From: Mustelus asterias
Lineage: Eukaryota
Length of the DNA stretch: 64,000 nt
Reading direction: 5' to 3'
Assembly (NCBI RefSeq): GCF_964213995.1
Contig: NW_027590479.1
Span: forward strand, 186,001-250,000
Of this stretch, positions 13,287-61,319 are shown in pieces; position 1 is the first letter of the stretch, and each line of letters starts with the position of its first letter. The position numbers were made by a program, and so were the translations under genes. The notes below the pieces were generated by a model. That model did no database searches. It saw only the letters and a list, made by a program, of their open reading frames with translations, and had not been told where the DNA came from.

Positions 13287-14492
13287 TTACTCGTGAATTC
13301 TTTGGTGTCTAAGCAGGTAGGATGACCGAGTGAATCTCTTCCCACTCTCAGAGCAGCTGAATGGCCTCTCCCCAGTGTGAGCTCGCTTGTGTCTCAGCAG
13401 GGTGGAGGACTGAATGAATCCCTTCCCACATTCAGAGCAGGTGAATGGCTTTTCCCCAGTGTGGGTGCGCTGGTGTAGAATGAGATCATATGATCGCCTG
13501 AACCCAGTCCCACAGTGAGAGCACCTGAACGGTCTCTCATCAGTGTGAACACGTTGATGGGAAGTCAGTTCACCAGAACTTTTATAGCACTTCTCACAGT
13601 CAGAGCATTTAAAAGGTCTCTCCCCGGTGTGAACTCGCTGGTGTGTCAATAGGTGGGATGACCGAGTGAATCCCTTCCCACAGTAGGAGCAGGTGAATGG
13701 CCTCTCCCCAGTGTGAACTCGCTGGTGTTGCAGCAGGCGGGATGACCGAGTGAATCCCTTTCCACACTCGGAGCAGGTGAATGGCCTTTCCCCAGTGTGG
13801 ATGCGCTGGTGTGGAATGAGGTCATATGATCGCTTGAACCCAGCCCCGCAGTGAGAGCACCTGAATGGTCTCTCATCAGTGTGAACACGTTGATGGGACA
13901 TCAGTTCATCAGAACTTTTATAGCACTTCTCACAGTCAGAGCATTTAAAAGGTCTCTCCCCAGTGTGAACTCGCTGGTGTGTCAATAGTTGGGATGACCG
14001 AGTGAATCCCTTTCCACACGCGGAGCAGGTGAATGGTCTCTCCCCAGTGTGAACTCGCTGGTGTACAGTGAGGTTATGTGAATGCTGGAACCCAATCCCA
14101 CAGTGGGAGCACCTGAATGGTCTCTCATCAGTGTGAACACGTTGATGGGACATCAGTTCCCAAGAACTTTTGAAGCACTTCCCACAGTCTGAGCATTGGA
14201 AAGGTCTCTCATCAGTGTGAACTCGCTGATGAGTAAGTAGGTGGGATGACTGAGTGAATCCCTTCCCACACTCAGGGCAGGTGAACGGCCTCTCCCCAGT
14301 GTGACTGCGCCGATGAGTTTCCAGCTGGGATGGGGAATTAAATTCCTTCCCACAGTCCACACATTTCCACAGTTTTTCCATGGAGTGACTGCACTTACGT
14401 TTTGACAGGCCAGAGGATCGGCTGAAGCCTCGTCCACACACAGAACCCGTGTACGGATTCTCCCCACTGTGAATAGTGCTTTTTCCTTCCAT
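13287..14492 (-). CDS. C2H2 zinc-finger protein, 12 canonical plus 2 degenerate fingers (type A, MEGKST start)
   Basis: Open ORF from ATG at 14492 with TGERPF linkers. No N-terminal effector domain in the exon. Confidence 0.9.
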
Positions 14493-14844
14493 GTTCAAAA
14501 TCCACTGATATTCAGTTATGATAAATTAGACGACTCTGGCAGTTCCTGATATGATGTTTACTTTCAGTTTCCTGACTGCAAATCGTCCCCTTCTAGTCCC
14601 TTTGAAGCTGATTCAAAACACAAAAAAGGGGATTGAGAGAAAACCCATAGAGACAGGTGATGAATAGAGTCCAGACCGAAGCAACAATAAAAATAAAACA
14701 CGCAGGAGGCCAGGAACTGAGGATCATCAAGATATTCAGCAGACTGGGCAGCCTGTGAGAGTTACAAACATTATTGAGGACTCAGGTTGCTGACTTGCCC
14801 TCAGTCTATAATGAAACATCTGGAGTCAGGCACTGACTAATGGC

Positions 14845-14870
14845 AGTCACATTTCCCACAATGCTCTGCG
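14845..14870 (+). promoter_or_regulatory. ZNF143/Staf-like site
   Basis: AGTCACATTTCCCACAATGCTCTGCG; conserved in the paralog at 49045-49070. Confidence 0.45.
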
Positions 14871-14916
14871 CCCCAGAAACCCCTCTATTCAAAAGTTGCT
14901 CACCGTAATTCACTAA

Positions 14917-15590
14917 TCATAGAATCCTGACAGTGCAGGAAGAGGCCATTTTACCCATTGAGTCTGTACTGACTCTGAGAGCATCTTTCCCAGGCTCACC
15001 TCCTATCCCAGTAACCCCACGCACTGACCCTGCGAATCCCCATCCTGACCTTTTTCTTCTGTGTGGCTACCAAATAAACCTGTTGGACTTTAACCTGGTG
15101 TTGTTAAACTTCTTACTGTGTTTACCCCAGTCCAACGCCGGCATCTCCACATCAGTGAGAGGAAACCAGAGCACCCAGAGGAAATGCACACAGACTGGGG
15201 GAGATTGTGCAAACTCCACACCTGAGGTGGAGATGTTGGACTGGGGTGGGCACAGTAAGAAGTCTCACAACACCAGGTTATTTGGAACTACGAGCTTTTG
15301 GAGAGCTGATGAAGGAGCAGCTTTGACAAACGGTCATCTGGACTCAAAATGTCAGTTCTTTTCTCTCCTTACAGATGCTGCCAGACCTGCTGAGGTTTTC
15401 CAGCATTTTCTCTTTTGGTTTCAGATTCCAGAATCCGCAGTAATTTGCATTGATTCCAAATAACTTAGTGGACTTTAACCTGATATTGTGAGACTTCTTA
15501 CTGTGCAAACTCCACACTGACAGTCACACACCCACGGCTGGAGTCGAACCCTGGCGCTGTGAGGCAGCAGTGCGAACCACTGTGCCACAG
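14917..15590 (-). mobile_element. V-SINE interrupted by Penelope-like terminal fragments
   Basis: SINE pieces at 14917-15040, 15155-15220 and 15503-15590; PLE pieces at 15060-15152 and 15225-15500. Confidence 0.75.
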
Positions 15591-16413: not shown

Positions 16414-16951
16414 CACACATGAGGACGGCCTCAACCGGGATCTTGGGTTCATGTCACACTATCTATAACCCCCCACAACTTGCCTGGGCTTGCAAAATCT
16501 CACTAACTGTCCTTCATCTGATGAAGGAGCAGCGCTCCGAAAGCTAGTGGCATTTGCTACCAAATAAACCTGTTGGACTTTAACCTGGTGTTGTTAGACT
16601 CCTTACTGTGTTTACCCCAGTCCAACGCCTGCATCTCCACATGCAGACAATACACACCTCTTTAATCTGTGCTTAATCCTCTCTCCACTCACATTGTCTG
16701 TACCTTTAAGACTTGATTACCTGTAAAGACTCACATTCCAACCATTATCTTGTAAATTGAGTTTGTGTCTTTATATGCCCTGTTTGGGATCACGACTCCC
16801 ACTCACCTGATGAAGGGGCTGCGCTCCAAAAGCTTGTGGCTTGTGCTACCAAATAAACCTCCTGCTGTGGTTTATTTGGTAGCTGGACTTTAACGTGGTG
16901 TTGTGAGACTTCCTACTGTGCTTACCCCAGTCCAACGCCGGCATCTCCACA
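16414..16951 (+). mobile_element. Penelope-like element 3' ends (two tandem partial pLTRs)
   Basis: GIY-YIG C-terminus THEDGLNRDLGFMSHYL*, hammerhead motifs, terminus CCAACGCCGGCATCTCCAC. Confidence 0.85.
16515..16549 (+). ncRNA. Minimal type I hammerhead ribozyme
   Basis: CAT-CTGATGA-A-GGAGC(AGC)GCTCC-GAA-AGCT-A^GTG: core boxes, stem II, palindromic loop 3, stem I. Confidence 0.8.
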
Positions 16952-17808: not shown

Positions 17809-17849
17809 GGGCTTCACTCTCCGATCACAATCCCTGCCGGCCTCCCACA

Positions 17850-18300
17850 TGCAGCCTCAATGGCGGCAGTCAGCCCGGGTCTAACACTACAAGCTGCCGC
17901 TCCATTTGGTACAAAGGGGGGGGACCGGGAAGTTCATTTCCGGGGTTTGGGTTTGGGTTTGAACAACATGTTTACAAAGCCTCTCCACCCACCCGCCACA
18001 TTTATCATTCCCCGCGCGCCGCCCTCTACCTCGTATTGATCTCGCTTCCAAGTTAAAACCATCCGTCTGTCCGTCGCCATTACCCGCACTGCGCATGCTT
18101 CAGGTCCCGCCCCTCATTCACTCTGATTGGTCGGAGGACCAGCCGCTCCCGCTCAGTCCTCCAGCCCCGCCCCCTCTTCCTATTGGTCCGGAGCTGCCGT
18201 CAATCAGTGCCGGGCATTGTGATGTGGAGCATGCGCAGTGTCATTGCTGTCCTTGGCGGTTGTTTGTCCCGGAGAAGCGGAGTCAGCGTTAGGCGGTGGC
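17850..18300. promoter_or_regulatory. CpG-island bidirectional promoter module, copy 1
   Basis: NRF1-like TGCGCATGC, GC boxes, two CCAAT boxes, YY1-like ATGGCGGC. 18060-18658 is an inverted paralog of 38843-39430. Confidence 0.75.
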
Positions 18301-18659
18301 TGGGAGGATTTGGAAACACTTTGTGGATCCGCAAACCCTTCAGAATCATTGTCAGCTCCCTGGTTTGCAGCTGCGGGGCTTCTCCCTCCCTCCCTCCCGG
18401 GAACAGGCCCAGGTTAACGGCCCCATCCTGGCTCAGCCACTGGAGGATGGTTCACATCAGAGGATGGGGGAGGGGGACAATAAATAAGAGGTTACACTTT
18501 GGCCTCAAATCAATGAGGACTCTGATCTCTGGGAAGGAAGGAAACCCTGGGAGGTGGGCAGGGAGGATTCACAAACACCCGCTGGAGGCCCCAACACCCC
18601 CAATAAGACCCATTGGTTTTATTGTCAGTCTGCAGACAGGAGCTGGAGAACTGAATCCA

Positions 18660-19160
18660 TGATGTGGAGATGCCGGCGTTGACTGGGGTAAAGACAGTAA
18701 GAAGTTTAACAACACCAGGTTAAAGTCCAACAGGTTTATTTGGTCGCAAATGCCACTAGCTTTTGGAGCGCTGCCCCTTCGTCAGGTGGAGTGGAGAAAT
18801 GCTCACTAATAGGGTATACAGAGACACAAACTCAATTTACAGAATAATGATTGGAATGCAGTCTTTACAGATATTCAAGTCTTAAAGGTACAAACAATGT
18901 GAATGGAGGGAGCATTAAGCACACGTTAAAGAGATGTGTATTGTCTCCAGACAGGACAGCCAGTGAGATTCTGCAAGTCCAGACAAGCTGTTCGGGTCAA
19001 TGCGTCTAACCAGCACGTCTTTCAGAATGTGGGAGGAAACCGGAGCACCTGGAGGAAACCCACGCAGACACGGGGAGAATGTGCAAACTCCACACAGACA
19101 GTGACCCAAGCCGGCAATCAAATCTGGGTCCCTGGCGCTGTGAAGCAGCAGTGCTAACCA
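18660..19160 (-). mobile_element. Penelope-like terminus (18660-18985) joined to a V-SINE 5' part
   Basis: PLE terminal sequence with a mutated hammerhead (CTGACGA..AAAAGCT); SINE head at 18990-19160. Confidence 0.8.
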
Positions 19161-19627: not shown

Positions 19628-22022
19628 TCACTCGTGAACACGCTGGTGTTTCAGCAAGTGAGGTGACTGAGTGAATCCCTTCCCACACACGGAGCAGGTG
19701 AATGGCCTGTCCCCAGTGTGAATTCGCTGGTGCTTTACCAGGTTGGATGATTGACTGAATCTCTTACCACAATCAGAGCAGGTGAATGGTCTCTCCCCGG
19801 TGTGAACTCGCTGGTGTCTCTGCAGGGTGGATGAATCAATAAATCCCTTCCCACAACTGGAGCAAGTGAATGGCCTCTCCCCAGTGTGAACTCGCTGGTG
19901 TTTCAACAAGATGAATGACTGACTGAAGCCCTTCCCACACTCAGAGCAGGTGAACGGCTTCTCTCCGGTGTGACCTCGCTGGTGTTTTAGGAGGTTGAAT
20001 GACTGGGTAAATCCCTTTCCACATTCGGAGCAGATAAATGGCCTCTCCCCATTATGAATTCTCTGGTGTTTCAGCAGGTCGGATGAATCAGTGAATCCCT
20101 TTCCACACTCAGAGCAGGTGAACGGGCTCTCTCCAGTGTGAACTCGCTGGTGTTTCAGCAGGATAGAAGAGGTAGGGAATCCCTTCCCACAATCAGAGCA
20201 TCTGAATGGTCTCTCTCTAGTGTGAACTCTCTGGTGTGTCAGCAGGATTGATGAGGTAGCGAATCCCTTCCCACACTCATGACAGTTGAATGGCCTCTCC
20301 CCAGTGTGAACCCACCAGTGTTTCAGCAGATGCGATGAACAAATGAATCCCATCCCACACTTGGAGCAGGTGAACGGTCTCTCCCCAGTGTGAACTCGCC
20401 GGTGTGTCAGCAAGATGGATGAGGTAGTGAATCCCTTCCCACACTCAGAGCAGGTGAATGGTCTCAAGAACAAAGAACAATACAGCACAGGAACAGGCCC
20501 TTCGGCCCTCCAAGCCCGCGCCGCTCCCCGGTCCAGGATTGAATCCTGAATCCAGGATCCCCGCCCAATTTTCCAGCCTATCTACATACCAATATCCTGT
20601 CCACCGAGCTGTCCCTCACAGCTACGATGCTTTGTTCATCACAACCTATTAACTCACCCCCACCCCCCCATTCCAGACCATGTGATCTCCAGGGAGAGGC
20701 GAAAACCCAGAGTGAAAACCCCAGGGCCAATATGGGGAAAAAGAATCTGGGAAATTCCTCTCCGACCCCCTGAAGCGATCGAAACGAGTCCAGGAGATCA
20801 CAATGGCCCTGATCGGAAAATGCTTCCCAACCCTAGTCATTTCCACTTCCACAAACACCATATGAATTCCCTGCCCCCGAGACAGGTTCCCAACTATCCG
20901 CAGTCTCGCTCTGTACTGGCACCAGCAAGATGATCATAGAATGAAGCCTTGAAACGAGAAACAAGGAACAATTAGCCCGCGCCGCTCCCTGGTCCAAACT
21001 AGACCACTCTTTTGTATCCCTCCATTCCCACTCCGTTCATATAGCTGTCTAGATAAGTCTTAAATGTTCCCAGTGTGTCCGCCTTCACCACCTTGCCCGG
21101 CAACACATTCCAGGCCCCCACGACCCTCTGTGTGAAATATGTCCTTCTGATATCTGTGTTAAACCTCCCCCCCTTCACCTTGAACCTATGACCCCTCGTG
21201 AACGTCACCACCGACCCGGGGAAAAGCTTCCCACCGTTCACCCTATCTATGCCTTTCATAATTTTATACACCTCTATTAAGTCTCCCCTCATCCTCCGTC
21301 TTTCCAAGGAGAACAACCCCAGTTTCCCCAATCTCTCCTCATAACCAAGCCCCTCCATACCAGGCAACATCCTGGTAAACCTCCTCTGTACTCTCTCCAA
21401 AGCCTCCACGTCCTTCTGGTAGTGTGGCGACCAGAACTGGACGCAGTATTCCAAATGCGGCCGAACCAACGTTCTATACATCTGCAACATCAGACCCCAA
21501 CTCTTATACTCTATGCCCCCTCCTATAAAGGCAAGCATGCCATATGCCTTCTTCACCACCTTCTCCACCTGTGACGTCACCTTCAAAGATCTGTGGACTT
21601 GCACACCCAGGTCCCTCTGCGACTCTACACCCTTTATGGTTCTTCCATTTATCGTGTAGCTCCTCCCTACATTATTCCCACCAAAATGCATCACTTCTCA
21701 TTTATCAGGATTGAACTCCATCTGCCATTTCCTTGCCCAAATTTCCAGCCTATCTATATCCTTCTGTAGCCTCTGACAATGTTCCTCACTATCTGCAAGT
21801 CCTGCCAGTTTTGTGTCGTCTCTCTCCAGTGTGATTGTGTCGATGAGTTTTCAGTTCAGATGGGAATCTGAATCTCTTCCCACAGTCTCCACATTTCCAT
21901 TGTTTCTCCCTGTTGTGACTGCATTTATGTTTCAACAGGCCAGATGATCGGCTGAATGTTCGTCCACACACAGAACACGTGTACAGTTTCTCTCCACTGT
22001 TAACCGTGCTTTCCCCTTCCAT
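19628..22022 (-). pseudogene. 12-finger C2H2 ZNF gene split by a CR1 insertion
   Basis: 5' part 22022-21818 and 3' part 20465-19628 rejoin in frame (HTGERPF) when 20466-21817 and one GTCTC copy are removed. Confidence 0.9.
20466..21817 (-). mobile_element. Young 5'-truncated CR1 with an unusually long 3' UTR
   Basis: Open ORF2 C-terminus ending at 20999; tail TTGTTCTTTGTTCTT; GTCTC target duplication at 20461-20465 and 21818-21822. Confidence 0.92.
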
Positions 22023-22779
22023 GTTCAAAACCCAATGATATTCAGATTACACTAATTTAGGCGATAGCGTCGGATCCTGATGCGATGTTTGGTTTGAGTT
22101 TTCTCCCTTCCACTCCTGCGCTTCTAATATCCTGTAAGAAAAAGTCCAAAGTTAAAAATTGAAGCAAACTTGGTTTGAGTTTACTGTGTGTAAATCCTCC
22201 CCTTCTCACCCTCTGGAAAAGGAGACTCCAAAATCTATCAATGTCAGTCCAGGATAGAAATTCACATTTTCTCACAGGGACAGTGATAACCGTGCCTGTG
22301 TCCTGCTCCCGAGAAAGATGACATCCATTAACCTACGTCTATCAGTGTTTCTCCTTCACTATTTCATGTGATGTGGTTTTATTGCCAAGACCAGCATTTA
22401 TTTCCTGCCCCTGAGGAGGGCAGTTAGAGACTGAATCGCATGTTGACAAGTCTATGGAGAGACAGCAGATTCCCATGAATAAACAGGATGGGTTTTTAAA
22501 ATTGTTCACAGCTGTAATGGTTACTCAAGTGAAATTATATTCCAGATTTTCCAGCGTTTTGTGAATTCTATTTAAACCCCCCCCAGCCCCATGATGGGAC
22601 TTGAACCCATCCCCAGAACATGAGGCTGTGTCACTGATATTACCACCACCTCCCCGATTTTAGAGCTGCTGCAATTACCCCCCGGGTCGGTGCAAACTTG
22701 GGCCCGGGGGTTCCTTATTCTGGGTTTTGAGGCCTCCTCCACTAACTGTTTCTGAAGCCTCTGCACCCACTTCCCCGCC

Positions 22780-22930
22780 TCCCTGCAGCTCCAGCACCCA
22801 CACTGCGCATGGGCCAGTCCGAATCCGCACAGCGCATGCTCCACGCGGAATCAGGTACTGCGCCTGCGCAGGCGGCTGCTATTGTGACAATACGGCACAT
22901 TCTCTCTCGCTGCGAATGCTGGGTAAGAGC
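22780..22930. promoter_or_regulatory. GC-rich promoter with NRF1-like sites
   Basis: TGCGCATG, GCGCATGCT, TGCGCCTGCGCA; paralogous to 31300-31410 including GAATGCTGGGTAAG. Confidence 0.6.
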
Positions 22931-23364
22931 ACCGCCATAGGAAGGAGATAATGTTCAACACAAAATTGTGCTTTGTCATCCAATTACGATCAGAACTACA
23001 GGGTTAATATATAAAATTATTCAACCAATTGATACATCTACCAATGTGCGTGGTGGAATTGTTACTGGATGAGCATTCCAGAGACCCAGGGTCCTTTTAG
23101 AGTCTTCCCCACTCTGTCGTAGGTTGCAGCACAATATAGTTGGGTTGGTCACATGGGCAGAACAGTGGTCGACTTCAAAATATATCACCATTCCGTCACA
23201 GTCGCTGGGACAAAATCCTGGAATTCCCTCCCTAACCACATTGTAGGTAAACCCACAGCACACGAGCTGCAGTGATTCAAGAAGGTAGCTCACCACCACC
23301 TTCTTAAGGGCAACTCGGGATGGCCAACTAGCGACGCCCATGTCCCACAAATGAATAAAAAAAA

Positions 23365-25902: not shown

Positions 25903-26748
25903 TTACAGTGAGAGGAGATGATTGTCTGAACTCAGTCCCACAGTGAAAGCATCTGAACGGACTCGAGTGTGAACCCGTTGATGGGTCATCAAGTTCCCAA
26001 AACTTTTAAAGCACTTTCCACAGTCTGGGCATTTAAAAGGTCTCTCGTCAGTGTGAATCCGTTGATGGCAGATCAGGTTCGAAGAGTTAGCGAATTCCTT
26101 CCCACATTTGGAGCAGATGAACGGGTTATCCTCAGTGTGAATCCGCTGGTGTGTCAACAGTTCTGTTGATGTAATGAATGCCTTCTCACACTCAGAGCAG
26201 GTGAATGGTCTCTCTCCAGAGTGAATTCGCTGGTGAATCAGAAGGTGAAACGACCGGCTGAATTTCTTCCCACACTCGGAGCAGGTGAATGGTCTCTCCC
26301 CAGTGTGAACTCGCTGGTGTGTCACCAGGTGGGTTGACTGAGTGAATCCCATTTTGCACTCGGAGCAGGTGAATGGTCTCTCTCCCGTGTGAACTCGCTG
26401 GTGTGACACCAGGTGGGCTGACTGAGTGAATCCCACCTTGCACACAGAGCAGGTGAAAGGTCTCTCCCCAGTGTGAATTCGCTGGTGTCTCACCAGGTGG
26501 GACAACTGAGTGAATCCTTTCCCACACTCGGAGCAGGTGAACGGTCTCTCCCCAGTGTGACACCGTCGATGAATTTCCAGCTCTGATGGGGAACTGAATC
26601 CCTTGCCACAACACTCACATTTCCACAATTTCTCCCCACCGTGACTGCATTTATGTTTTGACAGGCCAGATAAACGGCTGAATCCTCGTCCACACACGGA
26701 ACACGTGTACAGTTTCTCCCCACTGTGAGCGGTGCTTTTTCCTTCCAT
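25903..26748 (-). CDS. C2H2 ZNF (type A), 9 finger units, C-terminal frameshift
   Basis: ORF from ATG at 26748; out-of-frame finger relics continue to about 25810. Confidence 0.8.
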
Positions 26749-30660: not shown

Positions 30661-30779
30661 AAAACAATTCAATTGAAAAAATTGCATCCTTTTTTTGCAA
30701 ATCCTTCCATGACATTATTGTTCCCTATTTCCAGTCACACAGATGTTTGAATCTTTTTCTACAGACACACTTACAATCA

Positions 30780-31410
30780 GGTTCTGATGAATTGAGTGAC
30801 TCTGTCAGGTTTTGATCTGATGTTTGGTTTGAGTTTCCCTTCAAATTTTGTCATCAAATTTCCTGTAAAAAAGATCATCACTGTCAGTCAAGAATAGAAA
30901 TTAAGTGAGAAACATTTCTCTTGGGTTGAGTTTTCTGTGTGTAAATCCTCCCCTTCTGACTCCCTGTAAAAGGAGTTTCCAAAGTCCATCCCTGTCAGTC
31001 CAGGAGAGAAATTCACAACTTTCTCTCCTCCTGCTGGCAGGGAGCGCCGCGCATGCGCACTATTGCCCATCGCCCCGAGAAAGATGGCCTCCGTCAACTC
31101 GGGGCCTCCAAATCAGGCATCTGCGGTCGCGGCCCCGAATGGTAGGAACGCGGCACTGAACAGTTATTATTCGGGTTTTTCTGTATCCACTGGGTGCTTA
31201 TGAAGCCTCCGCATCCACCCCGCCGCCTGCATTACCCTCCAGAATAAGCCGTTTCCCTGGAAACCCGGAGCCGATATAACCGCCTTCCTGCGACTGCGGC
31301 AGCAACATCCACTGCGCATGCACTTTGGATCTACAGTACGCATGCGCAAGGTTTGCTGTAAGGATAGATCATATTCTGATTCACTGTGAATGCTGGGTAA
31401 GATACCCACC
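30780..31410. promoter_or_regulatory. ZNF promoter and acceptor module with no adjacent ZF exon
   Basis: GCGCATGCGC (NRF1), AAGATGGC (YY1), and two copies of the ZNF acceptor/5'-UTR module. Paralogous to 22060-22330 and 22800-22990. Confidence 0.6.
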
Positions 31411-31869
31411 ATTGAAGTATGTTCTTGCATTAAAAAAAATATGTTTTGTGATTCAATTACAACTGAAGCCAAAGCACCAAGGTATAAAATGAAAATAACT
31501 AATACAGCAGCTAATGTCAACAGGCACCACAGCTCTGTCCTGAGTTTAATTAATAGCGGAATAAACGTCTACACCTGAAGATGAACTCCTTGGAGTGTCA
31601 GCTGGTGTAACGAACTGATTGATTTACCATCCACCCCTTCTCCACACACACACACGGACTTGACAATAAGAATGGACTCATGTTTGATCAAATCCTTTGA
31701 ACTTTTAAATATGTTAACAGATGGGAAACTGAATAAATCCATTTACACACATAACATATCTGAATGGTCTCTTTCTGGTGTGGCTGTGCTGCTGTAAATA
31801 GGATAACTGACCACTTACATTCCAGAACTGACTGGGTCAGCACTGCTCTATTTCCAAGACCAACATTGA

Positions 31870-38550: not shown

Positions 38551-39229
38551 CAAAGTCTGAGGATATTCAGGTCCTAATGAAGCGAGACTCTGTCTGATTT
38601 TGATGTGATGTTTCCTCACCTCACCTGTAAAAGAAATTTACAAAAGTCATCACTGTCAATCCAGATAGAAATTCTGAACGGACAATTCTAGTTTCTCTGG
38701 AACATTTCTTCCTCTCTCGTTCCCCCAAATCTGTAAATCCCTGTCCCACACACTCTCCCTCCTCCCTGGGCTGAAATCCAAACCCATCTGCACCATTTCT
38801 ATCCTCCACTCCCAGTTTTCTCCCTCCCTCTCCTCTGTCTGGGTTCAGTTCTCCAGCTCCTGTCTGCAGACTGACAATAAAACCAATGGGTCTTATTGGG
38901 GGTGTTGGGTCTCCAGCGGGTGTTTGTGAATCCTCCCCGCCCACCTCCCAGGGTTTCCTTCCTTCCCAGAGATCAGAGTCCTCATTGATTTGAGGCCAAA
39001 GTGTAACCTCTTATTTATTGTCCCCCTCCCCCATCCTCTGATGTGAACCATCCTCCAGTGGCTGAGCCAGGATGGGGCCGTTAACCTGGGCCTGTTCCCG
39101 GGAGGGAGAAGCCCCGCAGCTGCAAACCAGGGAGCTGACAATGATTCTGAAGGGTTTGCGGATCCACAAAGTGTTTCCAAATCCTCCCAGCCACCGCCTA
39201 ACGCTGACTCCGCTTCTCCGGGACAAACA

Positions 39230-39680
39230 AGCGCCAAGGACAGCAATGACACTGCGCATGCTCCACATCCCAATGCCCGGGGGCTGATTGACGGCAGCTC
39301 CGGACCAATAGGAAGAGAGGGCGGGGCTGGAGGACCGAGCGGGAGCGGTTGGTCCTCCAAACAATCGGAGTGAAAGTGGGGCGGGGCCGGGCTGTGACTG
39401 AAGCATGCGCACTGAGGGTAATGGCGATGGAGAGCGGATTAACTTTCAGCTGCAGAATTGGTAAGACGGATGATGGCGGAATGGAGGGAGCGAGAGATCG
39501 GGCCGGAGGTGGAGAGGCTTCTTAAACAAATTGTGTCACCGCCAAACCCCAAAACAAACCCAATCTGTTTCCATTCACATCGAGAGCGAGAACAGCTCCT
39601 CGTGATCGGCTTGTGTTAACGGCCGTCCACTTTATTGGGGGCAATGTGCAGTCACAGGGAGGCACGGCCGCCATGTTTGT
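39230..39680. promoter_or_regulatory. CpG-island bidirectional promoter module, copy 2
   Basis: CCAAT, GC-box, NRF1-like and GCCGCCATG motifs between divergent ZNF genes. Confidence 0.78.
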
Positions 39681-40847: not shown

Positions 40848-42083
40848 ATGGAAAGAAAAAGCACTGTTCACAGTGGGGAGAAACTGTACACATGTTCTGT
40901 GTGTGGACAAGGCTTCAGCCAATCATCCGGCCTGTTAAAACATAAATGCAGTCACGACAGGGAGAAACCGTGGAAATGTGGAGACTGTGAGAAGGGATTC
41001 AATCACCCATCTGACCTGGAAACTCATCGACGCAGTCACACCGGAGAGAGACCATTCACATGCTCTGTGTGTAGGAAAGGATTCACCCAGTCATCCCACC
41101 TGCTGAGACACCAGCGAGTTCACACTGACGAGAGACCTTTTAAATGCTCAAACTGTGGGAAGTGCTGTAAAGGTTTTGGCGATCTGATGTCCCATCAACG
41201 TGTTCACACTGACGGGAGACCTTTTAAATGCTCAGATTGTGTAAAGTGCTATAAAAGTTCTGGGGAACTAATGCGTCACCAACGTGTCCATACTGAGGAG
41301 AAACCTTTTAAGTGCCTGGACTGTGGGAAGTGCTATAAAGGTTCTGGGGAACTGATGTCCCATCAACGTGTTCACACTGATGAGAGACCTTTTAAATGTC
41401 CAGACTGTGGGAAATGCTATAAAAGTTCTGGGGAACTGATGCACCATCAACGTGTTCACACTGATGAGAGACCATTCAGGTGCTCTCACTGTGGGACTGG
41501 GTTCAGGAAATCATCAGGCCTCACTGAACACCAGCGGATTCACACTGGGGAGAGACCGTTCATTTGCATTAAATGTGGTAAGGGATTCACGCAGTCATCA
41601 ACCTTGCTAAGACACCAGCTAGTTCACACTGAAGAGAGACCTTTTAAATGTACAGACTGTGGGAAATGCTATAAAAGTTCTGGGGAACTGATGCTCCATC
41701 AACGTGTTCACACTGATGAGAGACCGTTCAGGTGCTCTTACTGCGGGACTGGGTTCAAGCAATCATCTCAACTCTCTAAACACCAGAGGATTCACACTGG
41801 GGAGAGGCCATTCATCTGCACTGAATGTGGGAAGGGGTTCACTCAGTCATCCAGTCTGCTGACACACCAGCGAGTTCACAGTGAGGAAAAAAATAAATGC
41901 ACAGACTACAGGAAGTGCCATAAAATTTCTGGGAACATCCCACCTCATTTCAAACCAGCGAGTTCACACTGGGGAGAGACCCTCCACTTGCATCATGTGT
42001 GGGAAGGAATTCACTCAGTCATCCAACCTACTGAGACACTACCAAGTTCACAAGTGACTCCAGGAGTTGGATTTTGCTGTTAG
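40848..42083 (+). CDS. C2H2 ZNF (type A), 12 finger units, last finger frameshifted
   Basis: ATG at 40848; five KC(Y/C)K.(S/F)G(E/D)LM-type fingers. Confidence 0.87.
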
Positions 42084-43109: not shown

Positions 43110-44080
43110 TAGAATCACTACAGAAGGAGGCCATTTGGTTCATCCGGCCTACACCGACACCCGATCCCCATAACCTCATGTATTTACCTCCTGACACTAA
43201 TGAGGCAAGTTCCCATGGCCAATCCACCTAACTTGCAAATCTTTAGACTGTTGGAGGAAACCAGAGCACCTGGAGGAAACCCACACAGACATGGGGAGAA
43301 CATTCATACTCTGTACGGACAGTAGTCCGAAGCTGGAACTGAACCCGGGTTACTGGTGCTGTGAGGCAGCAGTGCCAACCACTGTGCCACCCATAACCAG
43401 GGACATGGCAGAGATGACCAGTGTGTGAATTGCTGGTCTTGTCCCTGTGGCTCCAATCTGTGTTCACAAAGGGACATACAATTACCCAGCATTTCCTGCG
43501 GGAACGTGCAGGCGCACTGTCCGGCTGTTCTGGGAGCATATGCATTGTGGATGGAAGCGTGAGGAGGTCTTGTCCTTTCACAACAGGTGAAATAAAACAC
43601 CGAGTGTGGATGGGGAACTGAGCCTGTACGTGGGCAGGTTTCATTAACACCAGATTCAAGTCGCAAAGTTCAAGTAAAAATCTAACGGTCCCGCATTTGG
43701 AGACCGATAGATTTGGTTGTTCTCTCGGTATCGGGCCGGGCTTGCCGGCCACCATCTTTATTGGGGGCAATCACAGAACCCGACAGTGCAGAAGAAGGCC
43801 GTTCGGCTCATGGAGTCTGCACCGACCACAATCCCACCCGCCCTATCCCCATAACACCTTACATTTACCCTCGCTAGTCCCCCTGACACTAAGGGTCAAT
43901 TCATCATGGCCAATCCATCTAACCTGCACATCTTTGGACTGTGGGAGAAAACCGGAGCGCCCCGGAGGAAACCCACGCAGACACGGGGAGAAAGTGCAAA
44001 TTCAACACAGTGACCCAAGCCGGGAATCAAACCCATGTCCCTGACACTGTGAGGCAGCAGTGCTAGCCACTGTGCCAACA
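43110..44080 (-). mobile_element. Two V-SINE copies (43110-43392 and 43770-44080)
   Basis: V-SINE core on the minus strand. Confidence 0.85.
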
Positions 44081-47965: not shown

Positions 47966-48583
47966 TTACTTGTGAATTCTTTGGTGTCTAAGCAGGTTGG
48001 GTGAATGAATGAATCCCTTCCCACATTCAGAGCAGATGAATGGCCTTTCCCCAGTGTGGGTGCGCTGGTGTAGAATTAGGTCTTCTGATCGCCTGAACCC
48101 AATCCCACAGTGAGAGCATCTGAACGGTCTCTCATCAGTGTGAACACGTTGATGGGACATCAGTTCATTAGAACTTTTAAAGCATTTCCCACAATCTGAG
48201 CATTTAAAAGGTCTCTCGTCAGTGTGAACACATTGGTGTGACACCAGGCTGGATGACTGAGTGAATTCCTTCCCGCACTCAGAGCAGATGAATGGCCTCT
48301 CCCCAGTGTGAACCCGCTGATGAGTAAGTAGGTGGGATGACTGAGTGAATCCCTTCCCACACTCAGAGCAGGTGAACGGTCTCTCCCCAGTGTGACTGCG
48401 CCGATGCATTTCCAGCTGGGATGGGGAATTGAATTTCTTCCCACATTCCACACATTTCTGCAGTTTTTTCATGGAATGACCACACTTATGTTTTGCCAGA
48501 CCAGATGATCGGCTGAAGCCTTGTCCACACCCAGAACCCATGTACACTTTCTCTCCACTGTGAATAGTGCTTTTTCCTTCCAT
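47966..48583 (-). CDS. C2H2 ZNF (type A), 6 canonical plus 1 degenerate finger; paralog of 13287-14492
   Basis: Open ORF from ATG at 48583, lying in the duplicated segment. Confidence 0.85.
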
Positions 48584-53938: not shown

Positions 53939-54529
53939 TCACTTGTGAACCCGCTGGTGTCTCAGTAAGTGGGATGAATTAGTGAATCTCTTCCCACACT
54001 GGGAGCAGGTGAATGGCCTCTCCCCTGTGTGAACTCGTTTGTGTCTCAGTAGGTGGGATGACTGAATGAATCCCTTCCTACACACAGAGCAGGTGAACAG
54101 TCTTTCCCGCGTGTGAACTCGCTGGTGTTTTAGCAGAATTGATGAGTGAATGAACCCCTTCCCACACTCGGAGCAGGTGAACGGCCTCTCCCCAGTGTGA
54201 ACTTGCTGGTGTGTCTGCAGGTTGGATGACTGAGTGAATCCCTTCCCACACTGAGAGCAGGTGAACGGTCTCTGCCCGGTGTGAATGCGCTGGTGAGTCA
54301 GCAAATCCGGTTTCCTTTTAAAGCTCTTCTCACAGTCAGAGCAAGTGAAAAGTTTGTTATCAGAATGAACAAGATGGTGTGTCTGAAGACAGGATAACCG
54401 AGTGAATCCTTTCCCACACACAGAGCAGGTGAATGGCCGTTCCCCGGTGTGACTGCGTCGATGAGCCTCCAGATGGGAAGGACAACTGAATCCCTTCCCA
54501 CAGTCCCCACATTTCCATGGTTTCTCCAT
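53939..54529 (-). CDS. C2H2 ZNF (type B, MEKPWK start), 7 fingers
   Basis: Open ORF with Kozak-like GGCACCATGG; fossil fingers lie upstream. Confidence 0.88.
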   Translation of the reverse strand: MEKPWKCGDCGKGFSCPSHLEAHRRSHTGERPFTCSVCGKGFTRLSCLQTHHLVHSDNKLFTCSDCEKSFKRKPDLLTHQRIHTGQRPFTCSQCGKGFTQSSNLQTHQQVHTGERPFTCSECGKGFIHSSILLKHQRVHTRERLFTCSVCRKGFIQSSHLLRHKRVHTGERPFTCSQCGKRFTNSSHLLRHQRVHK

Positions 54530-55923
54530 GGTGCCAGTGTCCTTGTGTCTCTCCAGGTTGGGTGATCAGTTGAAGCCTCGTCCACACACAGAACACGTGT
54601 ACAGTTTCTCCTCGCTGTGAATGGTGTGATGATTTTTTAGGCTTTGTAACTGGTTCAAGCTCTTTCCACAGTCGGTTCACTGGAACACTCTCACTCAGGT
54701 GTGTGTGTGTCTCGGTGCTTTTCTAGTCACACTGATGTTTGAAATTCTTTTCCCACAAACAGAACAGGCAAACGTTTCTCCTTCCACATTCAGAGGTTGA
54801 TGATATTCAGCTCCTGATGAATCGAGTGAATGTCAGATATTGACGAGTGTTTCCCGATTGTAACTCCCTGCGGAAAAAAGTGTTTAGAAAAGCTGTCAAT
54901 GTAAGAACAGGATAACATTCAGAACAAACGTTTCTCTTGGTTTGAGTTTGCTGTGTATTAATCCTCCCCCTTTAACCCCTTAGAAAAGGAGTTTCCAAAA
55001 TCCATCACTGTCAGTCCAGGATACAAACTCTGAATTTGGTTATCTGAAGGGGATAAATGAACCGGGTTAGACGGAAAAGGCAGGGGAATACCACTCAGTG
55101 AATTGCTCATTCTGAGAGCCAGCACAGACACAATGGGCCAAATGGCCTCTTTCTGTGCTGTAACAATTCAGAGAAAGTCACAACATTCCCTCCTCCTGGT
55201 TTCTCGCCCAGGATGACGACACATTGATTTGATTTATTGTGACATGTGAAAAGTAATGTTTCTGGCAACCTATACAGACAAAACATACCATTCGTAGAGT
55301 ATATAAGGGAGAAATACAAAGTCTCACAACACCAGGTTAAAGTCCAACAGGTTTATTTGGTATCACGAGCTTTCAGAGCACTGCTCCTTCATTAGGTGAG
55401 CGTGTTCACCTGATGAAGGAGCAGTGTTCCAAAAGCTCCCAAATTTTTAACAAATTTAACAAAAGAATAACCAATTTTAACAAAAATAACAAACAGAACA
55501 TAATTTCATTCATGCCTTGTGAAAAACATGGATCTGAATCTTGTGTTCAGGGCTGGGTGTGTGGAGATATTTTCAGATGAGCCTTGGTCAACACCACTGA
55601 GACTAACTTTAAATTGCAGATTGTTTGAATTGAATGGATTTGAAGCCCTGTCCCCAGAACATTGTGCTGTCTCTCTGGATTACTAATGCAGTGACATTGC
55701 CACAGGTTCAGTCTCTGAATTCAGGGGAATGATCACAGTCACATATTCTTAAAGGGAGACTGCAGGTCCAAGAACATAATCAGCTAATTAACTAGAATCT
55801 TAAACTCCAGCCAGTATTATGGTTGGTAACATCAGAGAAACAAACCTGAATTGTCAGAATGAACGTGGTTCAGTCCTGGGTATGATGAACACCAGCAACA
55901 TCAGTGGAATCCAAACCCTTCAG

Positions 55924-56560
55924 TCACTTGTGAACTTGCTGGTGTGTCATCAGGTGGGCTAGCTGACTGAATCCCCTTGCACACACTGAACAGGCGAATG
56001 GTTTCTCCCGGGTGTCAACTCGCTGGTGTGTCAGAAGGTTTGATGAAGTTTTGAATCCTTTCTCACACATGGAACAAACGAATGGTCTCTCGCCAGTGTG
56101 AACTCGCTGGTGTGTCAGAATGTTTGATGAATTAGTGAATCTCTTCTCACACACAGAGCAGGTGAATGGCCTCTCCCCAGTGTGAACTCGCTGGTGTGTC
56201 AGCAGCTGGGATAACTGAATGAATCCCCTCCCACAAACAGAACAGGTGAATGGCTTTTCTCCAGTATGAACTCTCTGATGTATCAGAAGCTCAGATGACT
56301 GAGTGAATCCCTTCCCACATACGGAACAAGTGAACAGCTTCTCTCCAGTGTGACTGAATTTCCAGCAAGGATGGGTATTTGAATCCCTTTCCGCAATCTC
56401 CACATTTACAGTTTCTCCGTGATGCTGGTGTCCTTATTTCTCTCCAGGTTGGATGATCAGCTCAAGCCTCGTACACAGTACACGTCTACGGATTCTCTCT
56501 GCTTCAATTGCAATGTTTTATACACTATGCAACTGTTAAAACAATCTTCCCTCCATATTC
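55924..56560 (-). pseudogene. C2H2 ZNF (type B) probable pseudogene, 5 intact fingers
   Basis: Start ATG changed to ACG, TAA or frameshift, and a deletion in finger 1. Confidence 0.75.
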
Positions 56561-57319
56561 AAAGGGCAATAATACTCACACTCCGATTCATTGAGTATCA
56601 GATATTGATGCGATGTTTGGTTTGCGTTTCCCACCTCCAAATCCTCTGCTTCTAATAACCTGATAAAGGAGTTTGAAAAGTCATCACTGTCAGTACAAGA
56701 TAGAAATTCTGAACAGACAGTTCTCATTTGGTGGAATATTTTCCACTTTCATTCCCCCAAATTAATTTGGTCCTGAATTGATCCTAAATTGAATATCTTC
56801 TCCACAAATCCTCAGCTTCTAATATGTTGTCAATGGAGTTTACAAATGTAACCAATGTCAGTCCAGGATATAAATTCTCAACAGACAATTCAAATCTGTA
56901 TATCCCCATCCCACACACTCTCCCTCCTCCCTGGAAATCCAAATTAAGTTTTGGATAATACTTTCGAGATCCTTTTAACAAATTTAACAAAAAAAAACAA
57001 TTTTAACAAAAATAACAAATTGAGCATAATTTCATTCATTACTTGTGACAAACATGAATCTGAATCACTCTGACTGGCCAGACAGAATAACAGACGTTAA
57101 CGTTAACAGTTACATGGGTAAGATGGGTATAGAGGGATATGGACCAAATGCAAGCGATTGGGAGTAGTTTAGGGGTTTAAACAAAAAGGGCGGCATGGAC
57201 AAGTTGGGCCGAAGGGCCTGTTTCCATGCTGTAAACCTCTATGACTCTAACCTTGCGTCCAGAACTGTGTGTGTGGAGATTTTCTCAGAGGAGCCTCAGT
57301 CACCAGGGGTTTACAATGG

Positions 57320-57829: not shown

Positions 57830-58275
57830 CCCCGGCACTGACCTCTCACCCGACACCTCACAATGCTTGGGGACTGATTGACAGCAGCTCCGACCAATAG
57901 GAGGAGGGGACGGGGCTGGAGGACCAATCGGAATGAATGAGAGGCGAGGCTGAGTGAGGCATGCGCAGTGTGATTAAGGGCAATGGGGAAGATTTTTTTT
58001 CCGATCTGCAATCCGTCCAGGAGAGAATGGCGGGAGCGATGGATCAGGTCAGTGACTGGATACGCTTCGTAAGCATGTCATATAGATTGCAAATGAGAAA
58101 GAATAACCCACCGGTTCCCGGGGACCGTTCCCCCGCCCTGGAGTGCTTTTCTCACAGAGCTGGGTTAGCGGCCGCCATCCTTATCCGGGCACTCGCAGTA
58201 GATAGAGCGCATGCGCAGCCGCCAGTTTTATTCGGGTACCAGGTAGAGCGCATGCGCAACCGCCATCTTTGTTGG
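57830..58275. promoter_or_regulatory. CpG-island bidirectional promoter module, copy 3
   Basis: Two CCAAT boxes, three GCATGCGCA (NRF1), CCGCCATCTT (YY1); aligns with 39250-39430. Confidence 0.78.
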
Positions 58276-58487
58276 GGGCAATAATTTTGATTATTTTTTC
58301 CACGAGAAATCAACCTGCTTCACGCTTCCACTTCCAGTTTCTTATTATTGAGGCAGAACAATGATAAATGGCCAGGGCAGTGACAATCATTTCTATTTAT
58401 GTTGTGTCTTCAACAAAATAAAAGTTTTAAGGCAATTCGGAGAAATGTTACAAAATAACAATTGACACTGAGCCAAATGACGAGATC

Positions 58488-58772
58488 ACAGAATCCCTGT
58501 CGTGCAAACCATTGGGCCCATCGAGACTGCATCAACAACAATCCCACCCTGACCCTATCCCCGTAACCCCACGTATTTACCTTGCTGACATGAAGGGGCA
58601 ATGCAGCATAGCCAATCAACCTAACCTGCACATCTTTGGAGTGAGGGAGGAAACTGGAGCACCCGGAGGAAACTCATGCAGACATCGGGGAAATGTGCAA
58701 ACTCTGCACAGAGGCTGGAATTGAACCTGAGTCCCTGGCGCTATGAGACAGCAGTGCTAACCACTGTGCCAT
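58488..58772 (-). mobile_element. V-SINE
   Basis: Core on the minus strand. Confidence 0.82.
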
Positions 58773-59972
58773 CAGTTTTGAGTAGTCTTAACGAAGGAGA
58801 GTGAGGTAGAGAATCAGAGCGGCTTAAGGAGGAAATTCCAGAGCTTGTGACTTGGACAAATGAAAAAGGTCATTACTGGGAGAGTGATTAAAATCGGAAA
58901 TGCTTAAGAGCCTGTGTGGCTGAGAAATATTACATAAATTTGGATGATTGCAACTATGTAGGTAAACAGGAATGAGAAATTTAAAAATTTGGTGCTTCTT
59001 AAAAGGAAGTGTTTGTAGACTGGTAAGCTCTACGGTGATGGCCGAACAAGATTTGATGCGAGTGAGCACATAACCTTTAAAACAAAAAGTCTGGTTCAGC
59101 CTCATTCATTTGGCAGGGACAGGGATAGAGCTGCTGGTGAGGAACTGAGTGCAATGGGTCCACTCTTCTCAGAATGTCAGACGAATTTGGATGGTGCGTG
59201 GCTCAGAGGGGAGCTTGCAGGTGATGGTGTCCACATACTCCTGCTGCCCTGGTCCATCCAGGTGGTGGAGGTTGAGGGTTTCGGAGATTCTATCAAATTG
59301 TGGCTCTGTTCTAGGTCTATAAAATGCCTCTCCATTGCCCATGTCTCTCCCACCCACTTCTCTCATTCTTACTCTTTCTGTCTCTCTTGTCACATTGAAT
59401 TCTCTAGCCCAGGGTGGTAGATGTTCCATCGTTGGTTAAGTTTAAGGATGGGATGGAGAGATTTTTGGTTTCTTGGGCGGGGCGGGGTGGGGAGAGGGGA
59501 GGGGGGGGTGGAGGTGGAGGTGAAAGATATGGGGAGCTGGCGGGAAAGTGGAATTGAAGACCAACACCAGCCATGATCATGTTGAATGGCTGGAGCCGGC
59601 TCAACAGGCCAAATGGTCTACTCCTGCTCCTATTGCTTGTGTTCGTGCAGATCTATGTGTAGACTCAGACCGAGTGGCAGGCTCCCTTCCCTGAAGGAGC
59701 TGATTGAACCTGATCACTTTTCACAAAAGATCCAACAGCTTTCATGGTCACCTTTCCCTCCTGTCAGCCCCATATAACACCAAATTCATTCACCTCAATT
59801 TCACAACCTGTTTTTGTGAGTTCTCTCTCACTCCCATTTTACTGTCTGAGATCAATTCCACGGGGTATCAGAAGGGGAGGATTTGCAGTCAGAAAACTCA
59901 AACCAAACATCCCATCAGATTCAAATGAAGTCACCTAATTTATCGTAACCTGAATATTTGTGAATCGTGAAA

Positions 59973-60993
59973 ATAGAAGGATAAAGCGTCATTCACAGTG
60001 GGGAGAAACGATGGGAATGTGGGGAGGGATTCAGATCTCCATGTGAACATTGGCCCAGACACACCGGGGAGAGGTCATTCACTTGCTCCAAGTGTGGGAA
60101 GGGATTCTCTCGCTCATCCAGCCTGCTGCAACACCAGCGAGTTCACACTGGAGAGAGACCTTTCACTTGCTCCAACTGTGGGAAGGGATTCGCTCAGTCA
60201 AACAACCTGCTGAGACACCAGCGAGTTCACACTGGGAAGAGACCATTCACTTGCTCGGAGTGTGGGAAAGGATTCGCTCGGTCCTCTGACTTGATGGCGC
60301 ACCAGCGAGTTCACACTGACGAGAGACCATTCAAATGTCCAGACTGTGGGAAGTGCTATAAAAGTTCCCGGGACCTGATACTCCATCAACGTGCTCACAG
60401 TGACGAGAGGCCATTCAGATGCTGTCATTGTGAGACTGGGTTCAAACAATCATCTCAACCCACTGAGTACCAGCATAGTCACACCGGGGAGAGGCCATTC
60501 ACCTGCTCAGTGTGTGGGAATGGGTTCAGTCGGTCATCTAACCTGCGGACACACCAGCGAATTCACACTGGGGAGAGACCTTTCACCTGTTCTGAGTGTG
60601 GGAAGGGATTCACTCAGTTATCCACTCTGCTGAATCACCAGAGTGTTCACAATGAGAAGAGACCATTTCAATGTCCAGACTGCAGGAAGTGCTACAAAAG
60701 TTCCCGGCAACTGCTCCACCATCAACAAGTTCACACTGAGGAGAGACCTTTTAAATGCCCAGACTGTGAGAAGTGTTTTAAAAGTTCTGGGGAACTGATG
60801 CGCCATCAACGTGTTCACACCGATGAGAAACCGTTCAGGTGCTCTCACTGTGACACTGGGTTCAAGACATCATCTGAACCTCACTGTACATCAGCGAGTT
60901 CACACTGGGGAGCGACCATTCACCTGCTCCCAGTGTGGGAAGGGATTCACTCAGTCATCCCCTCTGCTGACACACCAGCGAGTTCATAGGTAA
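59973..60993 (+). pseudogene. C2H2 ZNF (type A) probable pseudogene, about 11 fingers
   Basis: ATG changed to ATA plus TAA at the start, N-terminal deletion, 1-nt frameshift near 60875. The frame is open from about 59985 to the frameshift. Confidence 0.75.
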
Positions 60994-61319
60994 CTAAGGT
61001 GATTAGATTTTACTGTTAATAAGATCAGGACTGATCCATGTTCATTGGGGTCTGTTTCTGTTCATGTTGGTAAACTTCAAACCAAAAGAGAAAATGCTGG
61101 AAAATCTCAGCAGGTCTGGCAGCATCTTTAAAGAGAGAAAAGAGCTGACGTTTCAAGTCCAGATGACCCTTTGTCAAAGCTTAGTTGGTAAACTTCAACC
61201 CAGTTACATGGGCTAATACTCTGGATAAAAGTTAAATAAGTCAACATTGTGTTCGCACATTATGTTGAATCTTTAACACCTCAAACATTAGTTAGTTCCT
61301 TCTGAAGGTCTCTTTCTCG

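Follow-up and report, generated by a model that had tools for sequence, protein, structure and literature searches.

A promoter module at three sites in a shark zinc-finger cluster, with a polarised and probably inherited head-to-head layout

A predicted promoter module (P) is present three times in the window, the whole 64-kb stretch of Mustelus asterias DNA analysed here, with one side always turned toward a type A zinc-finger gene and the other, where a gene is found, toward type B. The module probably arose when two copies of one ancestral unit were joined head to head long ago, and it now sits within a birth-and-death cluster featuring conversion. Its layout is most likely the relic of a mirror-image duplication among broken copies, and not the mark of a working two-protein team. 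Exon structure, divergent transcription, the inverted-duplication origin and the mode of action are what we infer from the sequence. The three copies are composed as follows:

17830..18061, minus strand: A arm of P18, predicted first exon and donor-like element
18062..18240, unstranded: core P18, inverted relative to P39 and P58; NRF1-like sites at both ends, two CCAAT and two GC boxes
18241..18659, plus strand: B arm of P18, ended by a repeat, with no B gene beyond
38845..39249, minus strand: B arm of P39 with two copies of the donor-like element; predicted first exon, non-coding
39250..39440, unstranded: core P39
39441..39700, plus strand: A arm of P39, YY1-like site at 39669
57842..57996, unstranded: core P58, 77% identical to the P18 and P39 cores; B side without the shared donor-like element
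57997..58290, plus strand: A arm of P58, two NRF1-like sites and one YY1-like site

Each single-copy nhmmer query recovers both remaining cores (E 1.7e-39 to 5.9e-15), while a three-copy profile of the core yields its next match only at E 0.9: the module, reported in the preliminary description at about 18.1, 39.3 and 57.9 kb, is thus present in exactly three copies in the 64-kb window. All three cores are CpG-island-like (CpG o/e 0.86–0.99, vs 0.40 window-wide). Motifs were scanned as consensus strings rather than with matrices; by these strings, all 11 NRF1-like matches fall inside the three P and two Q regions (Q being a second promoter family, described below). Of the CCAAT/GC/NRF1/YY1 content originally assigned to the module, the YY1-like site is found in two of the three copies, in the A arm and outside the core, and the 57.9 kb copy lacks an exact GC box. 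The exact core pattern had no matches in metagenome contigs. NRF1, NF-Y, YY1 and GC sites, again as consensus strings, are combined with a CpG island between divergent genes, as in bidirectional CpG-island promoters. Vertebrate promoters of this kind, enriched in NRF1, NF-Y, YY1 and GABPA, are alike in motif set, CpG richness and geometry, as far as described in PMC3082894, where NRF1, NF-Y and YY1 sites are an ordinary bidirectional-promoter signature; unlike them, the promoter of the window is predicted, is itself a duplicated family, and has paralogous genes on both arms.

The polarity of the module is conserved in all five arms with a zinc-finger exon at most 4 kb away (three A, two B). 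The A side leads to 14.5, 40.8 and 60.0 kb, the B side to 38.3 and 56.4/54.5 kb; the CCAAT side had been described as facing type B and the opposite side type A, and every informative arm agrees. The two types are real subfamilies, as shown by a tree of the shared 5' block, where A and B separate into clades with support 97/98. Type A members are:

13287..14492, minus strand: A14.5, intact ORF, 401 aa, 12 C2H2 fingers, no further domain
19628..22022, minus strand: A22, A-start gene (MEGES), interrupted behind its second finger by a LINE-like insertion (about 20460–21820)
25903..26748, minus strand: A26.7, 281 aa, 9 fingers, no P module adjoining
40848..42083, plus strand: A40.8, 411 aa, 12 in-frame fingers
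47966..48583, minus strand: A48.6, 205 aa, 6 fingers, a duplicate of A14.5 without its promoter
59855..60989, plus strand: A60.0, exon with degenerate start, first in-frame Met within finger 3
62590..63351, plus strand: A62.6, A-clade gene (MEGES), 253 aa, 5 canonical fingers

The ME.KS start ascribed to the three A genes next to the module is intact at 14.5 and 40.8 kb, but lost at 60.0 kb (ATG changed to ATA, then TAA). The KCYKSS.ELM fingers proposed as a type A mark are likewise found at 14.5 (one) and 40.8 kb (three), but in this strict form in only two of the ten arrays; the looser KC[YF]K form is present in five of the ten, including 26.7 and 48.6 kb, neither adjoining a module. Four further genes with ME-G/K-type starts (22.0, 26.7, 48.6 and 62.6 kb) lie outside the cassette as first described. 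Nine of the ten arrays contain at least five fingers in total, some being split by insertions.

Type B exons are three:

37030..38630, minus strand: B38.3, probable pseudogene with an 11-nt deletion and without in-frame ATG; after finger 4, a SINE-like repeat (about 37577–37921)
53939..54860, minus strand: B54.5, MEKPWK start at ATG 54529, 196 aa, 7 fingers; stop-bearing fossil-finger leader ahead
55924..56670, minus strand: B56.4, probable pseudogene, ATG changed to ACG, frameshift

Of the features attributed to type B, the fossil fingers are confirmed, since degenerate fingers with stops are found upstream of the B start. The MEKPWK start is found in one exon of the three, at 54.5 kb, but not at 38.3 kb, where the deletion leaves no in-frame Met, nor at 56.4 kb. 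The stop-bearing leader is, oddly, more conserved than most coding fingers: B38.3 and B54.5 share 148 of 164 positions (90%) in the leader, vs 62–82% identity in the first three coding fingers. A sawshark model terminates at the same stop as the B leader, and a search for sharks with intact leader fingers returned only teleost proteins (40–43% identity; 10 of the 14 candidates). Selenocysteine insertion or read-through at the leader TGAs was considered and set aside: the leader also contains a frameshift, its pN/pS is 0.86, and no codon periodicity is present.

The second promoter family and other separate pieces are:

22680..23016, unstranded: Q22, CpG-rich, with an NRF1-like site and no CCAAT match; left arm homologous to P arms
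31045..31489, unstranded: Q31, second promoter family
30728..30873, minus strand: relic last-exon leader (E 1e-15) and piece of B-type insert (E 9e-6), behind Q31
43618..43773, plus strand: orphan decayed A arm (A-arm profile E 1.8e-9), with no core and no gene after it

The Q family (22.8 and 31.2 kb) faces one A gene and one B-type relic. A arms, B arms and Q have one first-exon/donor-like element in common, and because of this an old head-to-head join is favoured. Profiles of the element, built leaving one arm out, re-find that arm in five of five cases (E 7.6e-8 to 1e-9); the ten pairwise scores among the five arms are all above all 500 dinucleotide shuffles; the A-arm profile matches the left arm of Q31 (E 6e-11). 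Two of the three B arms keep the element, the B side of P58 scoring at shuffle level. The last-exon leader and the start of the 3' UTR are homologous in all ten arrays. None of the five promoters exceeds 100 shuffles in palindromic self-similarity; since the cores lack this signal, it is the arms that suggest the inverted duplication.

Duplications differ in extent. P18 and P39 are identical at 402/405 positions in the B arm and 162/178 in the core, vs 118/218 in the A arm, so that their last exchange did not extend past the B arm and core. Between A14.5 and A48.6, collinear blocks of 79–93% identity span about 4.5 kb and end short of the promoter. The two youngest duplications are partial, one giving the 99% identical B arm, the other the promoterless A14.5 copy. 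The 39.3 and 57.9 kb units, alignable in B exon (79%), core (77%), A exon (70%) and also B intron, may well be old duplicates of the whole pair. Multi-finger arrays, clustered paralogs, duplication and pseudogenisation are all found, as in tandem C2H2 (Kruppel-type) clusters.

The window is part of an elasmobranch tandem C2H2 cluster, whose members probably derive from a single ancestral unit made up of a promoter arm with a CpG island, one or more short non-coding exons, and a last exon with the entire finger-only ORF. An old inverted duplication would have put two such units head to head, after which the sides diverged. Type A would start at the first ME codon; in type B the upstream fingers would have decayed to a long 5' leader and the start shifted one finger on. 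The NRF1/CCAAT/GC core, common to both sides, most likely fires constitutively both ways, so co-expression of A and B would be a by-product of the layout. Each protein most likely acts on its own, binding specific DNA sequences and either occupying the sites or bringing in cofactors through its fingers. The cluster would turn over as units are duplicated in whole or in part, copies convert one another, repeats insert and genes decay into pseudogenes.

Some observations count against such an inherited layout: polarity is kept in the five informative arms; the 39.3 and 57.9 kb units are alignable part by part, as duplication of whole pairs predicts; the shared element is missing from the B side of P58; and P58 could serve the intact B54.5 and the intact A-clade gene A62.6, skipping the broken exons between. 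The first two are also what would be expected if, as the preliminary description proposed, the A–P–B pair were amplified and selected, A and B proteins being partners, possibly on transposons; chorion pairs would be the analogy. The separate A and B clades, and the lack of an effector domain in searches of ORFs, upstream frames and homologs, are in line with this proposal, as is the report that ZNF number tracks retroelement number across animals, according to PMC10547256. Yet each of the three modules has at least one adjacent gene broken or missing: no in-frame start remains in B38.3 or B56.4, the ATG of A60.0 is gone, and a B gene is absent from the 18 kb copy, while intact A genes persist next to dead or missing B. 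Four of the seven A-clade genes are away from P, and those adjacent to P form no supported clade in the tree, where branching within A lacks resolution; A40.8 is no nearer to A14.5 than to A26.7 (232/276 identical positions each). Because no pair is intact, the young duplications are partial, and A genes and a B relic are found behind Q, the pair is not supported as a unit that is amplified and kept, although its polarised head-to-head layout stands. A selected partnership is thus unlikely, a strict amplified A+B cassette being weakly supported, and the sequence suggests inverted duplication as the simpler origin of the arrangement.

Silkmoth chorion A/B genes, as presented in PMC4639761, are alike in consisting of two superfamily branches arranged in head-to-head pairs on a common promoter, and in tandem amplification with inversions, conversion and pseudogenes. 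They differ in being mostly intact and strictly paired (44 pairs in 127 genes). The window has the fixed polarity, but not intact partners co-duplicated in most copies: none of its three modules has an intact pair, the majority of genes have no partner, and the proteins are DNA binders rather than structural components.

As improbable as the selected partnership is a module that is effectively one-directional for protein, driving a single ZF gene while its other arm yields non-coding or pseudogene transcripts, or none. Next to P, neither of the two B exons is intact, and the third B arm leads to no gene; Q22 and Q31 each conserve a donor-like site on the right, and that strand has no finger gene further downstream. 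B54.5, however, is intact, with pN/pS 0.23 against B38.3 in the first two fingers; two of the three B arms retain the donor-like element of A arms; and models with a MEKPWK start are present in other sharks (P0006, P0032).

A broader proposal would make the 1000+ head-less zinc-finger genes of sharks polarised head-to-head A/B units, whose products would be co-expressed DNA readers acting jointly in a KRAB-independent control of repeats, with the window at a decaying edge and the B leader a selected 5' UTR whose stops tune translation; the leader's identity relative to the fingers, with the shared sawshark stop, is the reason for the last point. The proposal as a whole is doubtful, slightly more so than the two preceding ones.

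The intact genes of the window appear to be finger-only. An in-frame stop is found 5–27 codons upstream of the ATG in five of the six intact ORFs, none of the 103 upstream frames of at least 35 aa in the intervals scanned has a Pfam match, and none of the 15 chondrichthyan homologs has KRAB, SCAN, BTB or zf-AD; the same search lists PF01352 for 7 tetrapod matches. A Pfam scan of 34 homologs, giving the best five families each, was left out of the KRAB exclusion. The earlier view of these proteins as effector-less is thus upheld, and the N-terminal KRAB on an upstream exon typical of KRAB-ZFPs is not found. The least probable explanation is that the acidic leader before the ME codon, with spliced upstream exons, represents a present or past small N-terminal head, comparable to FiNZ or KRAB. 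In its favour, the leader peptide can be recognised in gene models of seven shark species, where its reading frame often continues into the fingers; within the window its codon signal is weak but retained, at pN/pS 0.63; and two skate models (P0001, P0045) have a common N-terminus with a P-x-V-x-L-like stretch, which we take to resemble an HP1 box. Against it, stops or frameshifts interrupt all six A leaders examined in the window, the open-leader models are a biased sample with N-termini unrelated to one another, and the skate N-terminus is found in two of 154 candidates (355–1133 aa), itself and a single counterpart, its tblastn matches to the window, among those listed, being weak (E 0.05 or above) and from the leader onward only.

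Tetrapod KRAB-ZFPs and cyprinid FiNZ-ZNFs, as described in PMC10547256, are similar to the window genes: poly-finger genes in clusters, high copy numbers with many of the copies broken, TGE[KR]P linkers, and a single last exon that holds the whole array. The window differs in the stops before the ATG, in having no KRAB or other Pfam head found, and in two subfamilies at fixed polarity around one promoter. The FiNZ head is 28 aa long, acidic and on its own exon, in a cyprinid host; FiNZ-ZNF membership is unlikely, since the host is elasmobranch-like and stops precede the ATG. Cartilaginous fishes are reported as depleted of KRAB-domain families (PMC8455134), while their ZNF counts are among the largest in the table of PMC10547256, with 703–3586 ZNF ORFs in six shark assemblies in its supplement table; the TE binding by ZNFs shown or predicted in the same paper concerns, where stated, non-shark lineages. 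No description of shark ZNF gene build or control was found in the literature searched. The window samples little of a family that numbers about a thousand genes. It gives a concrete anatomy open to testing, with a single ancestral unit, two subfamilies, two families of promoters and finger-only ORFs. Were the pairing under selection and the proteins to cooperate on repeats, transposons would be controlled by a new route; more likely, the layout was inherited and the cluster is an ordinary one with birth-and-death turnover, of interest mainly for ZNF and shark-genome specialists.

The B side of the 18.1 kb copy had been described as ending at a Penelope-like element (PLE), with no gene. The arm does stop, geneless, at an interspersed repeat at 18.66 kb, but the PLE label has no library match:

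18659..18987, unstranded: interspersed repeat truncating the P18 B arm

This repeat we take to be Penelope-like, following the first label, which is plausible. The 44-aa fragment encoded by it has no Pfam match, Rfam gives no match across the whole window, and the one hammerhead-like core in the window is at chance level (39 of 100 shuffles). One of three repeat copies folds better than shuffles.

Ten arrays of C2H2 fingers are present in the window, alongside two V-set segments and repeats of LINE- and SINE-like type; its zinc-finger locus belongs to the tandem C2H2 cluster kind, and all counts refer to these 64 kb alone. A tree of their common 5' block, with all 10 rows retained, places the genes of type A and type B, named by their position in kb, in separate groups (support 97/98); the only group resolved within the A clade is A14.5 + A48.6. 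For the A start region, the nearest homologs bearing a name come from sharks and rays (as much as 83% across all 70 residues), pointing to an elasmobranch-like source.

Coding state of the zinc-finger genes
A14.5: intact, 401 aa
A26.7: intact, 281 aa
A40.8: intact, 411 aa
A48.6: intact, 205 aa
A62.6: intact, 253 aa
B54.5: intact, 196 aa
A22: broken, LINE-like insertion after finger 2
B38.3: broken, in-frame ATG removed by an 11-nt deletion, SINE-like repeat after finger 4
B56.4: broken, start lost and frameshift
A60.0: broken, ATG missing, a stop three codons later, first Met within finger 3

The motifs proposed in the preliminary description to mark the two types hold in part. The MEKPWK start of type B is present in one of the three B exons (B54.5), the other two having no in-frame start; KCYKSS.ELM fingers, taken as the mark of type A, occur in strict form in 2 of the 10 arrays and in a looser form in 5. 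In A62.6, two or three atypical repeated units of pattern PCGQCG-x-TG precede the canonical fingers (62700-62890, +). Highly decayed finger relics lie beyond the ten arrays (31714-31778 and 63733-63762, both -), and an inverted 154-bp copy (98.7%) of the A48.6 end and 3' UTR is located at 49266-49419, about 1.3 kb from A48.6.

A promoter module had been described at 18.1, 39.3 and 57.9 kb, and all three copies stand.

Cores of the promoter module P
18062-18240: P18, inverted
39250-39440: P39
57842-57996: P58

Each copy, used as query, recovers the other two (E 1.7e-39 to 5.9e-15), and a joint profile finds no fourth match in the window better than E 0.9. All three regions are CpG-island-like (o/e 0.86-0.99 vs 0.40 for the window). 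Together with regions at 22.8 and 31.2 kb they hold 11 of the 11 NRF1-like matches in the window, NRF1-like and YY1-like sites being matched as consensus strings. The YY1-like site ascribed to the module is matched in 2 of the 3 copies, and sits in the arm facing the A gene. A head-to-head arrangement applies to some 10% of human genes, with NRF1, NF-Y and YY1 enriched there (PMC3082894).

The fixed polarity previously claimed, A gene on one side and B gene on the other, is seen in all five arms with a finger exon within 4 kb. Random assignment of seven A and three B exons reproduces it with p ~0.04 (hand arithmetic), which is no evidence of selection, because the P copies are related by descent. 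None of the three modules has both neighbours intact, since B38.3, B56.4 and A60.0 are broken and P18 has no B gene. Such modules would also suit protein output in one direction only, a reading judged unlikely; P58 could still serve the intact B54.5 and A62.6 via exon skipping.

P18 and P39 are identical at 402 of 405 positions in the B arm, 162 of 178 in the core and 118 of 218 in the A arm, the last figure being near background, because forced alignments with the non-homologous P58 B side give 53-54% as well. By these identities, the most recent P18/P39 exchange, in which the inverted copies were either duplicated or converted, was confined to the B arm and the core. Collinear blocks (12443-16951 vs 46850-51159; 79-93%, partly repeats) link A14.5 with A48.6 and stop short of the promoter, and a decayed A arm stands alone at 43618-43773. 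The units at 39.3 and 57.9 kb can be aligned in each of their parts, at 79% in the B exon, 82-88% in pieces of the intron, 77% in the core and 70% in the A exon; an older whole-pair duplication would predict this, in favour of the model of the preliminary description. Such a duplication speaks for an A+B partner cassette under selection, a model that we hold improbable; that the pair is the kept, amplified unit is not supported, given the lack of any fully intact module (0/3) and the partial duplications, of B arm plus core and of the A14.5/A48.6 blocks without the promoter. Chorion A/B pairs (PMC4639761) are alike in layout; the present locus does not feature their intact, jointly duplicated partners.

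A second promoter family is found at 22.8 kb (Q22) and 31.2 kb (Q31); its two copies match each other at E 5e-15 and do not match the P core. Q22 faces A22; opposite Q31 come first a relic leader with a fragment of the B insert (E 9e-6) and, beyond it, A26.7. A donor-like element of ~70-120 nt is present in the A and B arms of P18 and P39, doubled in each B arm, and in the left arms of Q22 and Q31. Profiles of this element built with one arm left out recover the omitted arm in 5 of 5 cases (E 7.6e-8 to 1e-9), with a weaker match in the P58 A arm (E 5e-4 to 0.04) and none on the P58 B side. All arrays have a common last-exon leader and 3' UTR start. We infer that the P module arose when two copies of a single ancestral unit became joined head to head; no palindrome is detectable in its core.

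Conserved right-hand stretches of Q22 and Q31 (22851-23016 and 31336-31489, +) end in a strong donor-like site, downstream of which no finger gene is found on that strand. A ~60-nt module, often tandem, precedes the acceptor of several last exons, possibly providing alternative acceptors or mini-exons.

Copies of the pre-acceptor module
22215-22272
30870-31024
38628-38684
40132-40235
54875-55038
56665-56887

The best reading of these sequences, fairly probable as one whole, is that a constitutive NRF1/NF-Y/Sp-type island would fire both arms, short non-coding exons being spliced onto one coding exon; the predicted finger-only proteins would bind DNA singly, the A/B pairing would be a layout by inheritance, and the cluster would turn over via birth-and-death. 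Overall, the earlier observation is partly confirmed and its interpretation partly supported.

The absence of effector domains, as first claimed, is supported by several tests. In 5 of the 6 intact ORFs an in-frame stop lies 5-27 codons ahead of the ATG, downstream of a predicted acceptor; in the remaining one, A48.6, the sequence ahead of the ATG stays open over 54 codons, though in a shifted frame. None of 103 sense-strand frames of at least 35 aa between promoters and exons matched Pfam, in a scan excluding SINE-like stretches (~40.4-40.7 and ~57.3-57.6 kb) and 26.9-30.7, 48.7-53.9 and 61.0-62.5 kb. KRAB, SCAN, BTB or zf-AD is annotated in none of 15 chondrichthyan homologs, while KRAB is annotated in 7 tetrapod matches of the same search. 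A hidden N-terminal head is judged unlikely. On these frames and homologs, the window genes are not KRAB-ZFPs.

What speaks against a finger-only reading is an acidic leader peptide, which can be made out, in many cases in frame, in gene models of seven shark species (19 matches, 3 seemingly unrelated); its pN/pS is 0.63 vs 0.38 for coding sequence, and it may once have been coding. Proteins P0001 and P0045, from two skates and alone among 154 candidates, have a common N-terminal extension, in which a P-x-V-x-L-like stretch, presumably resembling an HP1-binding box, precedes the leader peptide.

Fossil fingers in the type B leader are borne out by TGA stops common to B38.3 and B54.5, in three degenerate fingers.

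Type B leaders compared (84-90% conserved, above coding fingers 2-3 and 3' UTR)
54530-54789, -: leader of B54.5
38295-38552, -: leader of B38.3

Between the two, fossil fingers 2-3 are identical at 148 of 164 positions, coding fingers 1-3 at 76/93, 56/84 and 52/84 (values that finger shuffling may depress) and the 3' UTR at 77/113. The common stops, a pN/pS of 0.86, the lack of codon periodicity and the sawshark model P0076, which terminates at the same FQTSV stop, indicate that the leader is old and non-coding; protein P0080 has Trp at that position. UTR selection and conversion among B copies would both fit its conservation in this single pair.

According to PMC10547256, KZNFs are sarcopterygian and FiNZ heads cyprinid, ZNF counts correlate with retroelement counts, and six shark assemblies contain 703-3586 ZNF ORFs; the word 'shark' is absent from its main text. 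KRAB-like and FiNZ heads are reported for ray-finned fish (PMC11603059), and the accessible portion of 10.1101/2022.10.17.512540 does not mention zinc fingers. Among the matches listed, with most subscription journals outside the scope, no paper concerns the structure of ZNF clusters in sharks or ZNF subfamilies that are paired at a common promoter.

Neighbouring elements
352-750 and 5265-5729, -: V-set segments, with ~8 kb between them and the first zinc-finger gene
7238-11524, +: long LINE-like element, its frames being GDSL-esterase-like, endonuclease and reverse transcriptase
15066-16951, 18659-18987, 44575-47483 and 50217-51164: one repeat family, dense, in both orientations

The first V-set segment carries a heptamer-spacer-nonamer signal at 393-430 (matched by 1 of 100 shuffles), and T-cell receptor alpha/delta chains are among its single-chain PDB matches; the zinc-finger cluster may thus lie next to an array of TCR V segments. 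The LINE-like element is presumably CR1/L2-type. The repeat family has no library match; its sister copies encode a common short peptide, one of them has a hammerhead-like core, a match at chance level (39 of 100 shuffles), and the family is plausibly Penelope-like.
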